64,000 nucleotides of DNA, taken from positions 1 to 64,000 of the forward strand of contig CBDDBZ010000019.1 of NCBI GenBank assembly GCA_965225945.1, written 5' to 3'. Below the pieces are notes generated by a model. It was not told the DNA's origin, searched no databases, and worked only from the letters and a program-made list of their open reading frames with translations. Below are positions 20,957-63,166 of this stretch, one piece after another (within the stretch, counting starts at the first letter, position 1; each line of letters opens with the position of its first letter). This DNA comes from Alphaproteobacteria bacterium. Lineage in GTDB: Bacteria; Pseudomonadota; Alphaproteobacteria; GCA-2731375. The position numbers and the translations under genes are program-made.

Positions 20957-21308
20957 TTTTCGTCTACTTATCAGGCGCCTGAGACGAAATCTTCTTGTCG
21001 AATCCGAGCTTGCGGCGAGCCCCGTCCGGGCTTCGAAGTCTCCATTCCACCGGCCTAGTGTCCCGATTCCGAAGTTCGCATGATTTTCGCCTGCTGTTCA
21101 GCGATTTCGATTGTTCGGAGGCAGAAGCGCTGGATGGCGCCGAGGATGTCATCGGCGGATTTGGTCCATTTGAAGGGTTCGGGGTTCTGGTTTGTCGTGT
21201 CGATGTAGTCGAGGATGGTGCGCTCCAACTCCTTGGTGGAGCGATGGACGCCGCGCCTGATCTGCTTGTCGGTCAGCAGCCCGAACCAGCGCTCGACCTG
21301 GTTCAGCC

Positions 21309-22061
21309 CTTGCCTATCCGGTTATCACACACCCACTATATGTAGTGTGTCTCCTTGGACTGCAGGCAAGGGCCGGCGCAGGCGCATTGAGGAGGCGATC
21401 CGGCTAATTCTTGATTGTTCTGAAAACCGAACCGGAGTTTAATTCACGTCACGTATTTAACATCGGGGGACGGAACGGTGGCGACCAAGGGAAAAACGAA
21501 GAAACCCACGGCCAGACGGGAAGCTGCTGATGAAACGACATCGTCTGAGCGATTGACGGCACTAGTCGAAGAAAGCGACGCGCTGGCACGAATCGTTGCG
21601 AAGAACCCGTCCGCGCCTGTTAGTCTCCTGCGCGTTTTGAGTCGCAGCGAAGACGAAGCGACACGCAAGAACGTGATCCTCAATCCGTTTACTTCATATG
21701 ACGTATTGAGCGAACTTGAAAACCAGTTCACAGAGCTATTTGTGAATAATCCGGCACTCGAATCCTACAATTCAATGAAGCTCTGATTTCCTGGAATATT
21801 CCATCGGTGTCGTTCACCTCCGATTTCAGATAAATTTCAATGAAGTGACGGTCCTTTATGCAACGTGGCGTTTTGCCAAATCCGACTCAATGATTAGGAT
21901 TTCCACCACGCTAAAGTGTCGCCTAAAAGGCGCTACAATGCCGTCCGAGTCCCTGCTCGGCATCGCCGGAGATATCTCCGCTTCGACCTGCACCGAGCTT
22001 TACTCAGGAAAATGGGTGCACACTACATATAGTGGGTGTGGGTGATAACCGGATAGGTAAG
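21309..22061 (+). mobile_element. Non-autonomous IS1595-derived cassette, copy 1 (753 bp), 8-bp TSD GTTCAGCC
   Basis: About 43-bp TIRs starting CTTGCCTATCCGGTTATCA. TSD at 21301-21308 and 22062-22069. Confidence 0.93.
21478..21786 (+). CDS. LRV/HEAT-like repeat passenger protein (102 aa)
   Basis: Repeated xxNPxxP/L units (VAKNPSAP, VILNPFTS, VNNPAL); RBS GGGGA; identical protein in all three copies. Confidence 0.65.
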   Translation: MATKGKTKKPTARREAADETTSSERLTALVEESDALARIVAKNPSAPVSLLRVLSRSEDEATRKNVILNPFTSYDVLSELENQFTELFVNNPALESYNSMKL

Positions 22062-23129
22062 GTTCAGCCAGGAGGCGCTGGTGGGTGTGAAATGGGCCTG
22101 CCAGCGCGGCCGTTTGGCGAACCAGTCGCGGATCGCCTTGGTCTTGTGGGTCCCGTAGTTGTCCATGACGATGTGGATGTCGAGATCAGCAGGGACGTTC
22201 GCCTCGACGAGGTCGAGGAATTTGCGGAACTCTCGGGCCCGATGGCGCGGGAAACATTTGCCGATGATCTCTCCCGTGGCGATGTCGAGGGCCGCGAAGA
22301 GAGAGGTCGTGCCGTGGCGCTTGTAGTCGTGGCTGCGCCGCTCCGCCTGCCCGGGGCGCATCGGCAAGAGGGGCTGGGAACGGTCCAAGGCCTGGATCTG
22401 GCTCTTTTCGTCGACACAGAGAACCAGGGCACGATCCGGCGGCGCCAAATACAGACCGACGATGTCGCGGACCTTCTCCACGAAGAAGGGATCGCTCGAC
22501 AGCTTGAAGGTCTCCGAGCGATGCGGCTGCAAGCCGAAGGCCCGCCAAATGCGATGAATGGTCGAGGGCGCGTTGCCGCTCGCCCGCGCCATCGAGCGAA
22601 GGCTCCAATGGGTCGCGTCCGGCGGCGTCTCTTCCAGCGTCAGCCGGACCGCTTCCGCGATGGCGTCATCGCCGATTTGACGCGGCGCGCCGGGGCGGGG
22701 TTCGTCGTACAGACCGTCGAGGCCCTCCGCCGCATAGCGGCGACGCCACTTGCCCACGGTGTCCGCGCTCGCCTCGAGACGAACGGCGATCTCCTTGTTC
22801 TCCAACCCTTCCGCCGCCGCCAAGACGATCCGAGCCCGCCGCGCAAGCCCCTGCGACGTCTTGCGACGACGAGACAGCGCCTCCAATTCGGCGCGCTCGT
22901 CATCGCTCAAAGAGATCGTCACCGCCACTCTCGCCATCAATCGCGCCTCCTGAAAACAAATAGAGATATAATCATATCAATTTATCGATCAGGACACCAG
23001 TGCATGATACCCTGGCGAGTGACCCAGAGGAGGAGCGGGGCGATCGAGACCGATGTCCATTGGTTTCACGCCACTCGATGACCTTCCGACGAAAAAATAT
23101 GGTCTCGCCTCGTTGAAAGCGAAATTGCG

Positions 23130-56880: not shown

Positions 56881-58918
56881 TCAGTCGTTTGCTAGCTCCC
56901 CCAACGCGGATTGCAATCGCGTCCAGGCCCCCTCGATCGAGGCTTCGTCGGCCGAGAGATCGGTTTCGCCGGCCTTGAGCGCCGTCTCGATCCGGCCGAA
57001 GAGGGCGCCGAACTCACCCGCGCCTGCATTTCTCGACGATCCAGCGAGGCTATGGGCGGCATCGGCGGCGAGCTCGATGTCGCCGTCGGCCCGCGCCGTC
57101 CGATATCGCGCCAACGCCTCCGCCGCCGTGCTTCCATAGAGCGCCAGCATTTCCTTGGCCTCGTCGTCCAAGGCGCCGAACAGTTCCGCGATGCGGGAGG
57201 TGTCGAGCACGACGTCGTCATCGCCCTCGCCGCCGGCCACGATCGAGATCGTGTCGTATCCGGACTTCATCGTTGCCGGTATCCAGCGTTCGAGCGCGCT
57301 CGACAGCACGGCGATATCGATGGGCTTGCCCAGGTAGTCGTCCATACCCGCGTCCAGATAGTGCTGCCGGTCGTCTAGTTGGACGTGCCCGGTCATCGCG
57401 ATTACCGGCGTCCGGCGTTCCGACCCCGCTTCCCACGACCTGAGGCGTTCCAGGAAGGTCAAGCCATCCATTTTGGGCATGGTGATATCGACCAGAACGA
57501 CATCGATGCCTCCGGCCCGCGCCATCTCCAACGCAACTTCCCCGTTCTCGGCGAGGCGGCAGGCGATGCCGAGCTTTTCGAGCTGCTTTCGCGCGAGGAT
57601 TCGATTGGCTTCGTCGTCGTCGACGACGAGCGCGGTCGCGCCGTCGTAATCCAGCGGTGCTCTCGGACGGTCGTCGGTCAGTCGCGCGAGCGTGTCCAGC
57701 AACCCGTCGGCCCTGACCGGCTTGGTCAACACGACATCCATGCCCGCCTGGAGGCAAGTCTCGAGCTCGGCCTCGATCACGCTCGCCGTTATCCCGACGA
57801 TCGGAAGATCGGACCACGGCGGGCCCATCCGACGGATCCGTCCCGTCGCTTCCAGACCGTCCATGATCGGCATGTGCCGATCCATCAGGATGATGTCGAA
57901 GCGTCCCGCCCGGGTCGCCTCGAGCGCCTCGACTCCGTTCTCGGCTTCGACCACCTGGTGGCCGGCGCGAAGCAACATTTGGTTGACGACCCGTCGATTG
58001 GTCGCGTTGTCCTCCACGTGCAGGATCGACAGCGGCCGCTTCGGCTCGGACGACGGCGCGAAGCGGGGAAAGCCGGATCGCGAGCTCTCGGAGGCTTCGG
58101 CGAGATCGTCGGCGGAGCTAATGGGGAAGCGGGCGGTGAAACGGAACGTGCTGCCCGTGCCCAGCTTGCTCTCCAGCGCGATCTCGCCGCCCATCATGGC
58201 GACCAGGTGGCGGCAGATCGACAGGCCCAGGCCGGTCCCGCCAAATTGGCGCGCGACGTCGAGGGATTCCTGACTGTAGGCAGAGAACAGCTTGGCCTGT
58301 GCGTCCTCGGCAATCCCCTTGCCGGTATCGACGACGGCGAATTCCAGCAGCGCGGTCTTATCGTCCGAGTCGGCGAGTCCGACCTCGACGCGGACCGAGC
58401 CCTGGTCGGTGAACTTGATCGCATTGCTGAGCAGATTGAGGACCACTTGGCGGAGACGATACGGATCGCCCGAGAGCACGTCCGGCACCTCCGGCGCGAT
58501 TTCGCCGGTCAACACCAGCCCACCTTCCAGGGCGCGCGGTTCCAAGAGGCGCACCGCGTCGGCGACGACACTTGCGACCTCGAAGGGGATCCGTTCCAAC
58601 TCCAGACCCTCCGCGTCCAGGCGCGCCATGTCGAGGAGATCGTCGACGACCCGCAGCAACGCACGGCCGGAAGTGACGATCACCTCGACACATTCGCTGC
58701 TCTCCTTGTCGAGCTTCATGTCTTGCAGGAGCTGAGCCATGCCCAGTACGCCGTTCATCGGCGTGCGGACCTCGTGACTCATCATGGCCAGGAACTCGGA
58801 CTTGGCTCGATTGGCCTCGTCGGCGCGCAGGCGCGCCGTTTCCTCGCCGGCATAGGACGTGCCCTGCGCGCTGGTGAAGACGAAGAAGATCATGACCACC
58901 GGCGCGATCGGATCGAAC
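56881..58918 (-). pseudogene. Hybrid sensor kinase (HisKA-HATPase-REC-REC-Hpt), separated from its N-terminal sensor/TM region
   Basis: MSHEVRTP, NLLSNAIKF, GGTGLGL, two REC domains, AHSLAGSS. Upstream TM part at 63039-63166. Confidence 0.9.
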
Positions 58919-59673
58919 CTTGCCTATCCGGTTATCACCCACACCCACTATATGTAGTGTGTCTCCTTGGACTGCAGGCAAGGGCCGGCGCAGGCGCATT
59001 GAGGAGGCGATCCGGCTAATTCTTGATTGTTCTGAAAACCGAACCGGAGTTTAATTCACGTCACGTACTTAACATCGGGGGACGGAACGGTGGCGACCAA
59101 GGGAAAAACGAAGAAACCCACGGCCAGACGGGAAGCTGCTGATGAAACGACATCGTCTGAGCGATTGACGGCACTAGTCGAAGAAAGCGACGCGCTGGCA
59201 CGAATCGTTGCGAAGAACCCGTCCGCGCCTGTTAGTCTCCTGCGCGTTTTGAGTCGCAGCGAAGACGAAGCGACACGCAAGAACGTGATCCTCAATCCGT
59301 TTACTTCATATGACGTATTGAGCGAACTTGAAAACCAGTTCACAGAGCTATTTGTGAATAATCCGGCACTCGAATCCTACAATTCAATGAAGCTCTGATT
59401 TCCTGGAATATTCCATCGGTGTCGTTCACCTCCGATTTCAGATAAATTTCAATGAAGTGACGGTCCTTTATGCAACGTGGCGTTTTGCCAAATCCGACTC
59501 AATGATTAGGATTTCCACCACGCTAAAGTGTCGCCTAAAAGGCGCTACAATGCCGTCCGAGTCCCTGCTCGGCATCGCCGGAGATATCTCCGCTTCGACC
59601 TGCACCGAGCTTTACTCAGGAAAATGGGTGCACACTACATATAGTGGGTGTGGGTGATAACCGGATAGGCAAG
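58919..59673 (+). mobile_element. Non-autonomous IS1595-derived cassette, copy 2 (755 bp)
   Basis: Perfect 43-bp TIR; passenger ORF 59090-59398. Confidence 0.93.
59090..59398 (+). CDS. LRV/HEAT-like passenger protein, copy 2
   Basis: Same protein as 21478-21786. Confidence 0.65.
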   Translation: MATKGKTKKPTARREAADETTSSERLTALVEESDALARIVAKNPSAPVSLLRVLSRSEDEATRKNVILNPFTSYDVLSELENQFTELFVNNPALESYNSMKL

Positions 59674-59700
59674 GAATGAAGATTTCATGTAAGATCGAAT

Positions 59701-60821
59701 CTTGCCTATCCGGTTAACGCCCATGACCGCTACATGTAGGGTGCCGCCACTCTCCCGAGTAAAGCTCGGCATAGGTTGGAGCAGAGGTGTCGCCCGCGAT
59801 GCCGAGCAATGAGCGGAAGGCGTTGAACGGGTAGAACCGCCTGTTGAAGCGGAAGGTGAACTCGTTGAGGTAGGCTTGTAGGTGCTGGTGGCTAACGCCG
59901 TGGTGGATACCGATCAGCCACGTCTTCAGGTTGGCGAAAACCAGATGGATGATCGGCAGGTATTGCTCGGCAACCTCTGGATCACCACACTCGGCAACAG
60001 CGAAGTGCTCATAGCCGCGCTTACCGAGGCCAGCATAGCCGCTCCAATCGTCAGTAACGATCAGCGATCCCGGCGCGACGGTGCTCTCGACGAACCCACA
60101 GAGCGACTCGGCGCTACGGTCGAGCACGACGGCGAGCCGAACGCGTCCGGCATAGCGTCCGTCTTTCCGGTTGTCGAGCTTGGTGCCCGGCTTTCGATGA
60201 CGCACCTCGATGGCACAGGAGACGAGAACCTTGTGGTGAACACCACGGCCTTCCCCACGCGTTCGCCCGCCAACCCAGGTTTCGTCCACCTCAACATGGT
60301 TCTTGGGCTGTCCACCGATCCTGTCTTGGTTGGGCCGCACCATGCCCGAGCGGAGCTTGTGGAGAATTTGAAAGGCCGTCTCGTAGCGCGAAAGACCAAG
60401 TTGCCGCTGAAACTGCACGGCGGACATGCCGGGCGTCTGACTGGCGACCAGATAAGCGGCCCAGAACCAGACGTTCAGCGGAGTGTGGCTACGCTCCATC
60501 ACTGTTCCCACCGTCAGCCCGGTGTTCTGGCGGCACTTGCGGCAGCGCAGGACGCCAGGGCGGTTTTCAAAGTGGAACGGCTCTCCCGCCGTGCCGCAGT
60601 GCGGGCAGGCAAAGCCGTCTCCCCAGCGGGCTTTCTCCAGGTAGGCGGCGCAGGCCGCATCATCGGGGAAAAGTCGCTGGAACTCGGGTACCCGTTCAAC
60701 GCCTTCCGCTCATTGCTCGGCATCGCGGGCGACACCTCTGCTCCAACCTATGCCGAGCTTTACTCGGGAGAGTGGCGGCACCCTACATGTAGCGGTCATG
60801 GGCGTTAACCGGATAGGCAAG
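59701..60821 (-). mobile_element. IS1595 derivative with two right ends (133-bp IR), start-less transposase, 8-bp TSD GATCGAAT
   Basis: IR 59701-59833 / 60689-60821; TSD 59693-59700 and 60822-60829; CPHCG..CRKC, VEVDET, VTDD and YLNEFTFRFNRR motifs. Confidence 0.92.
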
Positions 60822-61219
60822 GATCGAATCTTAGGCCATCTATTCGCTGAATGCTGTGATGGCCATCACATGCCGGCCATGGAATCGTGAAATTCGCCGT
60901 CGCGCGCCAGGCGGTCCGGCCGGTTGGGCCTGGGGCTGGGCGGCGACTTCGACCTAATTTCCGGGCGCGGGGACCGACTCGGCGGCGCGTCGAGGCCAGC
61001 GCGACGCGAACCGGGAAACCACCAATGGACATATCCCTCGCCCTCGTCCCGAAGCTACCATGCCCCGCCGGGTTGGCCGGGGAAGCGGGTGGCCGGTCGA
61101 TTCCGCGCCGGCGGATCACGCTCACAAGGAGGGATATCGTGCCCGAGGGACGCATCGTCTTCACCCGGATGGAGCGCTCTTCACCCGGATGGAGCGCGTG
61201 ATCTTCGGCCGGGCGGCGC

Positions 61220-61445
61220 CACGCTCGCCCGCGAAACCGACGAGGTCGACCGGATCCGCGCCGCGCTGGGCGACCGCTTCGCCGGCCTGGGCTTGCTGCG
61301 GAGCCTGGCCGAGGTCGGTGTCGGGCGGCACGACTTCGAGCTCATCGCGCGCAACACGATGAACGATTCCTGGACCTATTCGAACCCGAGGAAGATCGCC
61401 GGTCCCGAGGACGTGATGGGGATCCTCCACGCCGCCGCCGGGTAG
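61220..61445 (+). pseudogene. Iron-containing ADH / maleylacetate reductase C-terminal remnant
   Basis: GLLRSLAEVGV...YSNPRKIAGPEDVMGIL. Confidence 0.6.
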
Positions 61446-61453
61446 CCGCCCCG

Positions 61454-62283
61454 CTAGTCGTCCGCTTGCGCTAGCAGGGTGGCGTTGCCGCCGGCCGCCG
61501 TGGTGTCGATGCAGAGCACCTGCTCGTGGACGAAGGGGCGGAGATCGCCGCCCGTCTCCAGCGCGACGATTCCGCCCTCGCGCGCCGCCAGCGCGCGGCG
61601 CAGCGCCGTCAAGGGCCCCGCCTCGCCGCGCGCGACGAGACCGGCCAGGTGCGGCAGCGCGACCAGGTCGGCGGGGTCGAGCGGACCGGCGCGCGCGACC
61701 ACGGGCAAGCCGGCCTCCCCGAGACGGCTGGCGAGCGGCCCCGGGGGATCGATCATCAGCACCGCGTTGGCCAGCGCCAGCGCCCCCACCATCGCGGCAT
61801 CGTCGCCCAGGACCAGAAACACGCCACGCGGCCGTAGCGAAATCCGGTTGCTCTCTCCGGTCGGACCGGGGAGCTCGGCGGGCGCATCGAGCAGGGCCTG
61901 GGCGGCCTCCAGCGCGGCCGAGGGTTCCGCCATGGGGCTGCCCAGCAACGCCCGGAGCAGAGCCGGTCGATCCCCCCGCCGGGCCCAGTCCGGTTGCAGC
62001 AGGGCGAGACGCGCCATCTCGTGCCCGAGCGTCGCCGCCTCCGACAGCGTTCCGAGCACCAGGGCGATCCCGGGCCGGCAATCCGGGCGGCGGCGAAAGC
62101 GCGGCAGATAGTTGGGCCCGCCCGCCTTCGGCCCGGTGCCGGAGTTGCCCCGCCCGCCGAACGGTTGCGAGCCGACGACGGCGCCGATTTGGTTGCGATT
62201 GACGTAGAGGTTGCCGGCCTGGATCCGCTCGACCACCCGCTGCACCCGGCGGTCGACCCGGGTGTGGAGGCCGAAGGTCAGGC
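61454..62283 (-). pseudogene. putA: PutA C-terminal fragment
   Basis: LTFGLHTR, GNLYVNRNQIGAVVGSQPFGG, GTGPKAGGP, LPGPTGESN and IDTTAAGGNA motifs; cut at cassette copy 3. Confidence 0.92.
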
Positions 62284-63038
62284 CTTGCCTATCCGGTTAT
62301 CACCCACACCCACTATATGTAGTGTGCACCCATTTTCCTGAGTAAAGCTCGGTGCAGGTCGAAGCGGAGATATCTCCGGCGATGCCGAGCAGGGACTCGG
62401 ACGGCATTGTAGCGCCTTTTAGGCGACACTTTAGCGTGGTGGAAATCCTAATCATTGAGTCGGATTTGGCAAAACGCCACGTTGCATAAAGGACCGTCAC
62501 TTCATTGAAATTTATCTGAAATCGGAGGTGAACGACACCGATGGAATATTCCAGGAAATCAGAGCTTCATTGAATTGTAGGATTCGAGTGCCGGATTATT
62601 CACAAATAGCTCTGTGAACTGGTTTTCAAGTTCGCTCAATACGTCATATGAAGTAAACGGATTGAGGATCACGTTCTTGCGTGTCGCTTCGTCTTCGCTG
62701 CGACTCAAAACGCGCAGGAGACTAACAGGCGCGGACGGGTTCTTCGCAACGATTCGTGCCAGCGCGTCGCTTTCTTCGACTAGTGCCGTCAATCGCTCAG
62801 ACGATGTCGTTTCATCAGCAGCTTCCCGTCTGGCCGTGGGTTTCTTCGTTTTTCCCTTGGTCGCCACCGTTCCGTCCCCCGATGTTAAGTACGTGACGTG
62901 AATTAAACTCCGGTTCGGTTTTCAGAACAATCAAGAATTAGCCGGATCGCCTCCTCAATGCGCCTGCGCCGGCCCTTGCCTGCAGTCCAAGGAGACACAC
63001 TACATATAGTGGGTGTGGGTGATAACCGGATAGGCAAG
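62284..63038 (-). mobile_element. Non-autonomous IS1595-derived cassette, copy 3 (755 bp, inverted)
   Basis: Reverse complement of 58919-59673. Confidence 0.93.
62559..62867 (-). CDS. LRV/HEAT-like passenger protein, copy 3
   Basis: Same protein as 21478-21786. Confidence 0.65.
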   Translation of the reverse strand: MATKGKTKKPTARREAADETTSSERLTALVEESDALARIVAKNPSAPVSLLRVLSRSEDEATRKNVILNPFTSYDVLSELENQFTELFVNNPALESYNSMKL

Positions 63039-63166
63039 GTTCGAACATCCATTGGTAATGCACGAAGGCGAGCCACGAGCCGGCCACGACAAAGGCCGTG
63101 CCGATGGCGGCGATCGCCAGACCCGCGTAAGCGCCGAAGCGCCGTAACAACACGATCAGGAGCAGG
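63039..63166 (-). pseudogene. TM segment of the split sensor kinase (CHASE2-type TM region)
   Basis: LLIVLLRRFGAYAGLAIAAIGTAFVVAGSWLAFVHYQWMF joins in frame to DPIAPVVMIFF at 58918. Confidence 0.8.

Follow-up and report, generated by a model that had tools for sequence, protein, structure and literature searches.

A probable mobile insertion cassette of IS1595 descent carrying an LRV_2-type gene in an alphaproteobacterial genome

Results

Three copies of a transposase-less cassette

The stretch of DNA studied here, referred to as the window, comprises the first 64,000 nucleotides of contig CBDDBZ010000019.1 (C19:1-64000) in the 6.27-Mb, 39-contig assembly GCA_965225945.1 of an alphaproteobacterium, denoted genome G000 below. 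It harbors three near-identical copies of a short element, the cassette, which has 43-nt terminal inverted repeats (TIRs), a gene for a protein of 102 amino acids and no transposase gene. Such a structure had been recognized in an earlier, sequence-only reading, and the coordinates, the 100% complementarity of the repeats and the open reading frame (ORF) content found here agree with it. Copy 1 (21309-22061, plus strand) is 753 bp long; copy 2 (58919-59673, plus strand), which serves as the reference, and copy 3 (62284-63038, minus strand) are each 755 bp long. Alignment revealed no difference between copies 2 and 3, and copy 1 (99.47% BLAST identity to copy 2) has lost 2 bp in the left repeat and carries two substitutions, one of them at the right tip.

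In copy 2, the left TIR (58919-58961, plus strand) is the full complement of the right TIR (59631-59673), and the left arm, which is of the family type in comparisons of left arms, runs on from 58961 to about 58984. The right arm (59566-59673, plus strand) consists of a remnant of the last ~31 codons of a transposase gene plus the right TIR. The gene between the arms, called the cargo here, occupies 59090-59398 on the plus strand of copy 2 (102 codons plus stop), 21478-21786 on the plus strand of copy 1, where it starts with GTG, and 62559-62867 on the minus strand in copy 3. It encodes a protein of the LRV_2 family, and comparison of the proteins showed that it is the same in the three copies, as had been stated. 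The second ORF in the cassette, of 66 codons, has transposase-like last 31 residues and no Pfam match, and no transposase gene was found inside the cassette in the ORF list, by Pfam or by tblastn. Over 108 nt, the right arm is 78.7% identical (BLAST) to the right end of ISx, a resident insertion sequence (IS) of the IS1595 family described below; its translation is 39% identical to IS1595 transposase over 79 residues, and 69-75% over the last 24-32 residues (tblastn). The earlier view of the right arm as a genuine right end that encodes a transposase C-terminus, here a 31-residue remnant, is borne out.

The layout of the cassette is as follows: a left end (the 43-nt repeat and ~23 nt of family-typical subterminal sequence), a leader of ~125 nt, the 309-nt gene, ~170 nt of uncertain origin, a stub of ~31 codons from the 3' end of a vanished transposase gene, and the right end. 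Its G+C content (51.0%) compared with that of the genome (66.3%) may reflect a foreign origin.

Insertion sites and a putative composite in the window

Copy 1 splits an IS630-like transposase gene (21061-22940, minus strand) into an N-terminal part (22062-22940), with DDE_3 and HTH_32/29/28/23 domains (Pfam), and a C-terminal part (21061-21300), the reading frame resuming at 21300. It is flanked by identical 8-bp target-site duplications (21301-21308 and 22062-22069), so that the clean duplication inside an IS630 gene reported earlier is confirmed. Using as a probe the two flanks of copy 1, joined in silico with a single copy of the duplication, we found that at least 24 uninterrupted IS630-like copies matched, with 96-99.6% identity across the junction; these represent its target before insertion.

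Neither copy 2 nor copy 3 has a duplication of its own. They are the left and right members of a putative composite of 4120 bp (58919-63038), in which two inverted cassettes surround 2610 bp made up of 27 bp, an ISx derivative, a C-terminal fragment of an iron-containing alcohol dehydrogenase (Fe-ADH), and a C-terminal fragment of an aldehyde dehydrogenase that is cut by copy 3. The outer 8-mers (58911-58918 and 63039-63046) match in 7/8 bases. The composite splits a hybrid histidine-kinase gene (56881-63153, minus strand) into an N-terminal membrane segment (63039-63153) and the remainder (56881-58918), with HisKA, HATPase_c, two receiver and Hpt domains. When 58919-63038 and one 8-mer are removed in silico, the 38-residue membrane segment falls in frame with the kinase, and one continuous frame results. 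Two other cassette pairs in the genome (C24:55786-61169 and C33:252803-254713) likewise have no individual duplications, and their outer 8-mers match in 8/8 bases. Judged from these junctions, two cassettes appear to be able to act as the ends of a composite transposon carrying chromosomal DNA.

Copy number and target duplications

A BLAST search of the whole genome with the cassette, a check suggested in the sequence-only reading, gave 313 high-scoring segment pairs. Sixty-nine copies are full length (at least 700 nt aligned), 26 of them at 100% identity and 15 with one mismatch, and they make up 0.83% of the genome. The other matches include 29 from partial or interrupted copies, 21 that represent the 108-nt match to resident IS ends, and one degenerate solo end. 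At the BLAST-derived copy boundaries, a perfect 8-bp duplication flanks 47 of the 69 copies, four have a duplication with one mismatch, and 18 show two or more mismatches. By an eye count, 10 of the 47 perfect duplications start with GTTC, which points to a target preference of the cassette for such sites. A fourth 100% identical copy, with a perfect 8-bp duplication, lies just past the window end (C19:64710-65464), 1.7 kb from copy 3.

The cassette in other genomes

Among 60 related genomes, matches to the cassette body were found in three. In G002, of the same genus, there are a 684-bp variant flanked by a perfect duplication and a partial copy at 100% identity; G017, of another genus, has 99-100% identical pieces at contig ends; and G037, of another family, has a 99% identical partial cassette and a variant at 83%. 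Of 401 genomes sampled evenly from the class, three (G000, G037 and G221) contain the cargo. The genome G221, which belongs to the family of G037, contains six full cassettes at 99-100% identity, each flanked by a perfect duplication, together with about 24 intact copies of ISx (99% amino-acid identity). In every checkable genome with a cassette of at least 99% identity (G000, G221 and G037), ISx was found at 98-99% amino-acid identity; G002 has a partial copy of it. Transfer of the cassette across families is the clear reading of these identities. Furthermore, the duplications, the empty sites and the near-identical copies at different sites in three genomes, taken as the traces of past insertions, show the cassette to be mobile. 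In G037, a complete 5.0-Mb genome, the ISx transposase has >150 matches (97-99% identity), which amounts to an extreme IS expansion, and many of these are recurrent truncated forms (e.g., residues 4-266, about twenty times).

A family of cassettes defined by the cargo

Protein searches (E <= 0.001) placed 234 of 251 candidate clusters in the family of the cargo, with 74-99% identity and, in nearly all, a length of exactly 102 residues. Most of these genes are on contigs of 0.5-1.5 kb, a pattern typical of repeats that collapse in assembly. In an alignment of 29 sequences, 20 columns are invariant and three 'NP' repeat units are seen. The position of the start codon is fixed but not its sequence (ATG, GTG or TTG), the purine-rich stretch before it is conserved, and a conserved block in the leader was noticed by eye only.

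Of 80 candidate stretches in species-representative genomes, 12 were confirmed. Six loci in records of alphaproteobacterial metagenome-assembled genomes (MAGs), L068-L073, are complete cassettes of 529-546 bp with both ends; they consist of repeat, ~125-nt leader, gene, ~20 nt and repeat, with no transposase remnant. L075 and the present cassette have an extra segment of ~210 nt after the gene, ending in the transposase remnant, and in a database fragment (P0127) the same segment is joined to a longer piece of transposase. The joint in P0127 suggests that the 755-bp form arose from a short cassette that gained the 3' end of an IS, which was then whittled down. The 755-bp form would be a sub-lineage of an older and widespread family of ~540-bp cassettes, the overall size range being 0.53-0.76 kb and the same gene being present in every member. 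L074, L077 and L078 are partial cassettes, and two loci are interrupted: L075:500-1527 by about 264 bp inside the ORF, and L076:2330-4303 by about 1.4 kb. One further candidate, L079, was set aside as probably unrelated (a weak 32% match).

For six coding sequences (the present genome and L068-L072; L073, a duplicate of L072, and the partial loci were left out), the ratio of nonsynonymous to synonymous substitution rates (dN/dS) lies between 0.20 and 0.59 in each of the 15 pairs, and dS between 0.31 and 0.91. Such values suggest purifying selection on the cargo gene throughout the family.

Resident IS1595 elements

ISx is 1105 bp long and encodes a transposase of 339 residues with Zn_ribbon_IS1595 (PF12760, 52.1 bits) and DDE_Tnp_IS1595 (PF12762, 128.3 bits) domains; it also matches NCBIfam NF033547 (192.8 bits, cut-off 75). 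This enzyme shares 81.7% identity with the transposase of ISAcr1 from Acidiphilium cryptum JF-5 (RefSeq NC_009468.1), an IS1595-like element of 1080 bp with a perfect 8-bp duplication, which is the nearest named relative of the cassette. The genome contains seven uninterrupted 339-residue frames. Four copies of ISx stand alone, two of them (C26 and C34) with perfect 8-bp duplications, the length also seen in ISx derivatives. Six further copies are embedded in forms of 1631 or 1658 bp (C14:57696-59326, C1:44070-45700, C15:7573-9203, C33:95821-97478, C38:177697-179354, and C27:160123 to the contig end, all in G000). Each of these forms consists of a complete 1105-bp ISx, 20 bp, and the 3'-terminal 505 bp of that ISx repeated in inverted orientation, which take the place of the outer left end. 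Their TIRs are nominally 505 bp, perfect for 195-505 bp depending on the copy, and they have duplications at the outer right ends.

The ISx derivative inside the composite of the window (59701-60821, minus strand) is 1121 bp long and has its own 8-bp duplication (59693-59700 and 60822-60829). Its inverted ends are perfect for 133 bp, its left side being an inverted copy of its right side; it has no left end, and its transposase frame, which still matches both Pfam domains of ISx and NF033547, lacks the first 14 codons and a start codon. The sequence-only reading had noted that its terminal 16 bases equal those of the cassette, which holds; the same 16 bases are shared by the cassette and ISx. 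The element, which that reading called an IS1595, is not intact but defective, and it ends at 60821, not at ~60819. A second 1121-bp derivative, with a different 8-bp duplication, lies at C34:188810-189930. Since the derivative is found at two sites with different duplications and has no transposase start, it must have moved in trans. By these alignments, the true two-right-end elements of the genome are ISx derivatives, and not the cassette.

A second IS1595 group, ISy, has about 18 copies and a transposase 36% identical to that of ISx. Within the cassette, ISy figures only as an invader: one copy has inserted into the right repeat (C4:70811-71888) with its own 8-bp duplication. ISy also adjoins cassettes near C32:287126-288022 and C39:239526-240422. 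At two places (C26:1261-3128 and C32:60181-62048), a cassette and a stand-alone ISx are exactly 8 bp apart; at the former, one and the same 8-mer precedes the cassette, separates the two elements and follows ISx, as if one target had served both. The window itself is very rich in mobile DNA. Further pairs of 99-100% identical repeats (6284-6748/17321-17786, 18041-18340/63165-63464, 7068-7314/38398-38644 and 14553-14690/51479-51616) are presumably other insertion sequences.

The ends of the cassette

Autonomous relatives have inverted ends of ~40 bp, and their left end mirrors the last transposase codons. The left and right ends of one element match in 31/43 bases in ISx, 34/43 in ISAcr1, 37/43 in an element of genome G024 (transposase 78% identical) and 38/43 in a deletion derivative in G017. 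This last one is a 357-bp element without an ORF, resembling a miniature inverted-repeat transposable element (MITE) and derived from a related IS1595 element (L061:1082-1438, in G017:C52). Its right end also occurs at several contig ends of G017, and in RNA and DNA contigs of public runs.

The 43-nt repeat of the cassette matches each of the two ISx ends in 35/43 bases, those of ISAcr1 in 35-39/43 and those of the G024 element in 32-36/43. Over the first 34 bases, it matches the ISx ends in 27-30/34 (the left end in 30/34), compared with 15-18/34 for ISy. A census of the genome counted 142 ends of the cassette type, 21 of the ISx right-end type and 10 of the ISx left-end type; no cassette-type end was found in the genome on any other element or transposase gene.

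The two arms of the cassette are identical over 43/43 bases and then match in 9/23 over bases 44-66. Over the latter stretch, the left arm resembles left arms (16/23 in the G017 derivative, 17/23 in L068 and 20/23 in L075) and not right arms (5-11/23), and the left end of the G017 derivative continues into sequence homologous to the 5' coding region of a transposase. The right arm resembles right ends over the same stretch (18/23 in ISx, 16/23 in ISAcr1 and 22/23 in L075; range 16-22/23) and not left ends (4-11/23), and the transposase 3' remnant is present in the right arm only. In L068, the bases just inside the repeat are those of the G024 left-end variant on the left and of the G024 right-end variant on the right. 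In light of these matches, the cassette is one left end and one right end. The sequence-only reading had taken the left TIR for a duplicated right end, a claim that these counts contradict. It had been set beforehand that a parent element naturally bearing the repeat at its left end would speak against that claim, and this is in substance what the relatives show, since their left ends natively mirror the right (31-38/43). Of the proposed symmetry, the identity of the 43-nt repeats stands, but the arms diverge past base 43.

Arm identity is 39-40/43 in related cassettes and 31-38/43 in IS elements. The 43/43 identity in the present cassette could be due to a parent with perfect ends or to homogenization of the ends. 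No exact autonomous parent was found in the present genome, in the 60 relatives or in a search for longer proteins, the last yielding read-through chimeras, P0127, and full transposases that reach no more than 70-71% identity over the remnant.

The cargo protein

The cargo matches Pfam LRV_2 (PF25591) at 34.1 bits (cut-off 27, E = 2.6e-8, residues 12-64), and this family is precomputed on most of its homologues. The LRV repeat (PF01816) scores 19.4 bits, below the cut-off of 21.6, and is present on some homologues. Among the 69 genomic copies, the protein is identical in 48, retains 102 residues with substitutions in 10, and is disrupted or could not be located in 11, so that the ORF is intact in 58. 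The earlier description of an LRV-like cargo that is not decaying is in keeping with these results and with the dN/dS values.

An AlphaFold model of the cargo is all-helical, with a predicted local distance difference test (pLDDT) score of 66. A sequence-profile search of the PDB gave no match with E below 0.37, and Foldseek gave none in the PDB at E <= 0.001; in a wide VIA-align search the best Z was 4.2, on a single long helix. No family was found in NCBIfam, PADLOC or PHROGs, and the protein atlas contained LRV-type clusters only. The structural check proposed earlier assigned the protein no function. A profile comparison of the cargo and transposases indicated no relation (probability 0.2), and a predicted complex of the cargo with the ISx transposase received a score of 0.10 and a mark of 0.32. 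No signal peptide was seen by eye. The cargo is probably a cytoplasmic helical-repeat protein of the LRV_2 type with a basic N-terminal tail.

A promoter scan found one site (59485-59512), which is within chance expectation. Rfam searches of 58800-60900 gave nothing near the gathering scores; what turned up were hairpin artefacts where two ends abut. The cassette is covered by contigs from the RNA libraries of three studies, which may be DNA carry-over; one RNA contig (X7) is 729 nt long with a depth of 50, and the DNA library of the same sample (X1) has a depth of about 600. Among public runs, the best DNA holders of the cassette are labelled sponge metagenome.

Discussion

Taken together, these results are probably best explained by a mobile insertion cassette (MIC) that descends from an ISAcr1-like member of the IS1595 family, is moved in trans by ISx and carries an LRV_2 gene under selection. 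The transposase would be supplied by the resident 1105-bp ISx, which seems already to move transposase-defective derivatives of itself. Insertion would prefer sites starting with GTTC, and paired cassettes would carry chromosomal DNA as composites. A lineage of short cassettes (end, leader, gene, end) would have gained a new right arm from the 3' end of an IS, and the cargo may act at the level of the element, on the borrowed transposase or on the ends. The duplications, the empty sites, the similarity of the ends and the transposase remnant also agree with the earlier description of the cassette as active, non-autonomous and of IS1595 descent, probably spreading in trans.

Several observations weigh against this explanation. 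Eighteen of the 69 copies show no duplication where BLAST places their boundaries; the three composite pairs account for six of them, and several others have nested insertions or truncated ends. A perfect 8-bp duplication flanks one of eight short MAG cassettes (L076); the match is 7/8 bases in L072 and L073, and there is none at the set boundaries of L068-L071 and L075. Both ISx ends match the cassette repeat in only 35/43 bases, a second IS1595 group that shares 14/16 terminal bases is present, and G037, with its >150 ISx copies, holds only fragments of the cassette, so that the abundance of ISx does not predict that of the cassette. As to the cargo, the promoter scan found none upstream of its ORF, all 10 variant proteins in the genome bear amino-acid changes, and a dN/dS of 0.2-0.6 means only moderate constraint. 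Furthermore, the ORF-less 357-bp derivative of a related IS, present at several contig ends of G017, indicates that cargo is not needed for mobilization.

Our guess about the cargo is that this basic-tailed repeat protein modulates the borrowed transposase or the ends, and is not a random passenger. The sole argument for a role at the level of the element is that selection on a single gene, maintained throughout a non-autonomous family, probably reflects a benefit to that family. A more specific form of the idea, in which the cassette encodes, in its LRV_2 protein, a factor for capturing or tuning an ISAcr1-type transposase, for example by recruiting it to cassette ends or by damping it, is speculative and rather unlikely. 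If it were true, the cassette would be a protein-coding hyperparasite of an insertion sequence, which would explain both the one selected gene in many lineages of a transposase-less element and the ~70 copies.

The strongest of the alternatives, though still a doubtful one, is that the cassette is a mere vehicle and that the LRV_2 protein serves the host cell, for example in life with an animal host, selection on the host keeping the gene. The purifying selection and constant length of the cargo, the sponge label of its best DNA holders and the movement of the G017 derivative without a cargo would all fit. However, the MAG records that contain the family are labelled variously (for example, Stellaceae, Rhodoplanes and an ocean-station bin), the protein has no signal peptide visible by eye, only three of the 401 genomes in the class sample have matches, and 58 intact copies of one gene in a genome are hard to square with a benefit to the host.

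A transposase other than that of ISx, from ISy or from an unseen exact parent that is absent or unassembled, is an unlikely mover of the cassette. The identity of only 78.7% between the right-arm remnant and ISx means that ISx is not the parent of the cassette; ISy is numerous and shares most of the terminal bases; and G017 has the cassette at 99-100% identity, yet its best ISx-like match is weak (E = 4e-54). On the other hand, the ends of ISy resemble the cassette repeat far less than those of ISx over the first 34 bases, no transposase gene in the genome bears a cassette-type end, and the G017 assembly is fragmented (360 contigs), with repeats at contig ends. Above all, ISx accompanies the cassette in two families, and this joint travel is the main support for ISx as the helper. 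The case for mobilization in trans by ISx is circumstantial, consisting of co-occurrence and similarity of the ends, and ISx is the best candidate.

That the cargo ORF is a functionless hitch-hiker or no real gene, conserved through recent spread or constraint on the DNA, appears improbable. No function was assigned by profile, structure or family searches, the confidence of the model is modest, the RNA-library contigs may be carry-over, and 11 of the 69 copies are disrupted or could not be located. Nevertheless, dN/dS stays below 0.6 in every pair at dS up to 0.9, the length of 102 residues is kept in 234 clusters down to 74% identity, the LRV_2 score exceeds the curated Pfam cut-off, and the start codon varies at a fixed position behind a conserved purine-rich stretch. 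Finally, a symmetric element made of two IS1595 right ends, the left repeat being a duplicated right end, is very unlikely and already contradicted: the identical arms next to the imperfect ends of relatives (31-40/43), the last transposase codons within the repeat, and the two-right-end ISx derivatives of the same genome (1631/1658 bp, and 1121 bp with 133-bp TIRs, each with duplications), whose mobility implies a transposase able to use two right ends, would speak for it, but the arm identity stops exactly at base 43, the left arm beyond is of the left-arm type, the left ends of ISAcr1 and of the G024 element natively mirror the last codons, and L068 has a left-end variant on its left arm and a right-end variant on its right arm.

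The MIC of IS1595 descent that we favor would be a clear-cut natural example of a cassette that encodes a protein but no transposase and is in a burst of copy number, with 58 intact copies of a small gene. Its internal controls are the empty sites, the composites, the defective IS derivatives moved in trans and the near-identical copies in another family. It also shows the breakage of genes by cassettes (a hybrid histidine kinase and other IS elements) and the carriage of chromosomal fragments. A role of the LRV_2 protein in transposition would make it a novel type of accessory factor for DDE insertion sequences; without such a role, the cassette is an ordinary, well-documented MIC.

A MIC, according to the relevant passages of two papers, is a transposase-less element with the inverted ends of a resident IS and a passenger gene, moved in trans (PMC3129680, PMC3281130). 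The present cassette has the repeats of an IS family, no transposase and an unrelated passenger, and is flanked by the target duplication of that family at many sites. MIC231 of Bacillus cereus is a MIC derived from IS231, of the IS4 family. The cassette is like such MICs in having no transposase, ends of a resident-IS type and a passenger gene, with movement in trans predicted here; it differs from MIC231 in its IS family (IS1595, not IS4), in its 69 full copies occupying 0.83% of the genome, and in carrying the same passenger across a diversified family. A full-text literature search found no paper describing an LRV-carrying IS1595 cassette.

The right end of ISAcr1 matches the cassette repeat in 39/43 bases and, as in the cassette, has the last transposase codons inside the right repeat; however, ISAcr1 is autonomous, has no LRV gene, and its own ends match in only 34/43, a divergence which means that the parent of the cassette was a different element. 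The tip of the element presumably fits the end consensus of the ISSod11 subgroup, by eye only. Siguier, Gagnevin and Chandler reportedly described, in 2009, IS1595-family elements with passenger genes ('transporter IS') that retain their transposase; the cassette shares with these the IS family and a passenger gene inside the ends, but has lost its transposase gene except for ~31 codons. Like MITEs, it is non-autonomous and in high copy number, with target duplications and ends of a resident-IS type; unlike them, it is 755 bp long and encodes a conserved protein. Like the modules of composite transposons, pairs of cassettes bracket 0.4-3.9 kb of DNA, seemingly moved, with duplications at the outer ends, whereas the flanking modules are here themselves non-autonomous. 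The cassette is thus of a known kind, the MIC, and is unusual in its copy number, in a family defined by its cargo, in the composites that it bounds and in its clear transfer between families.

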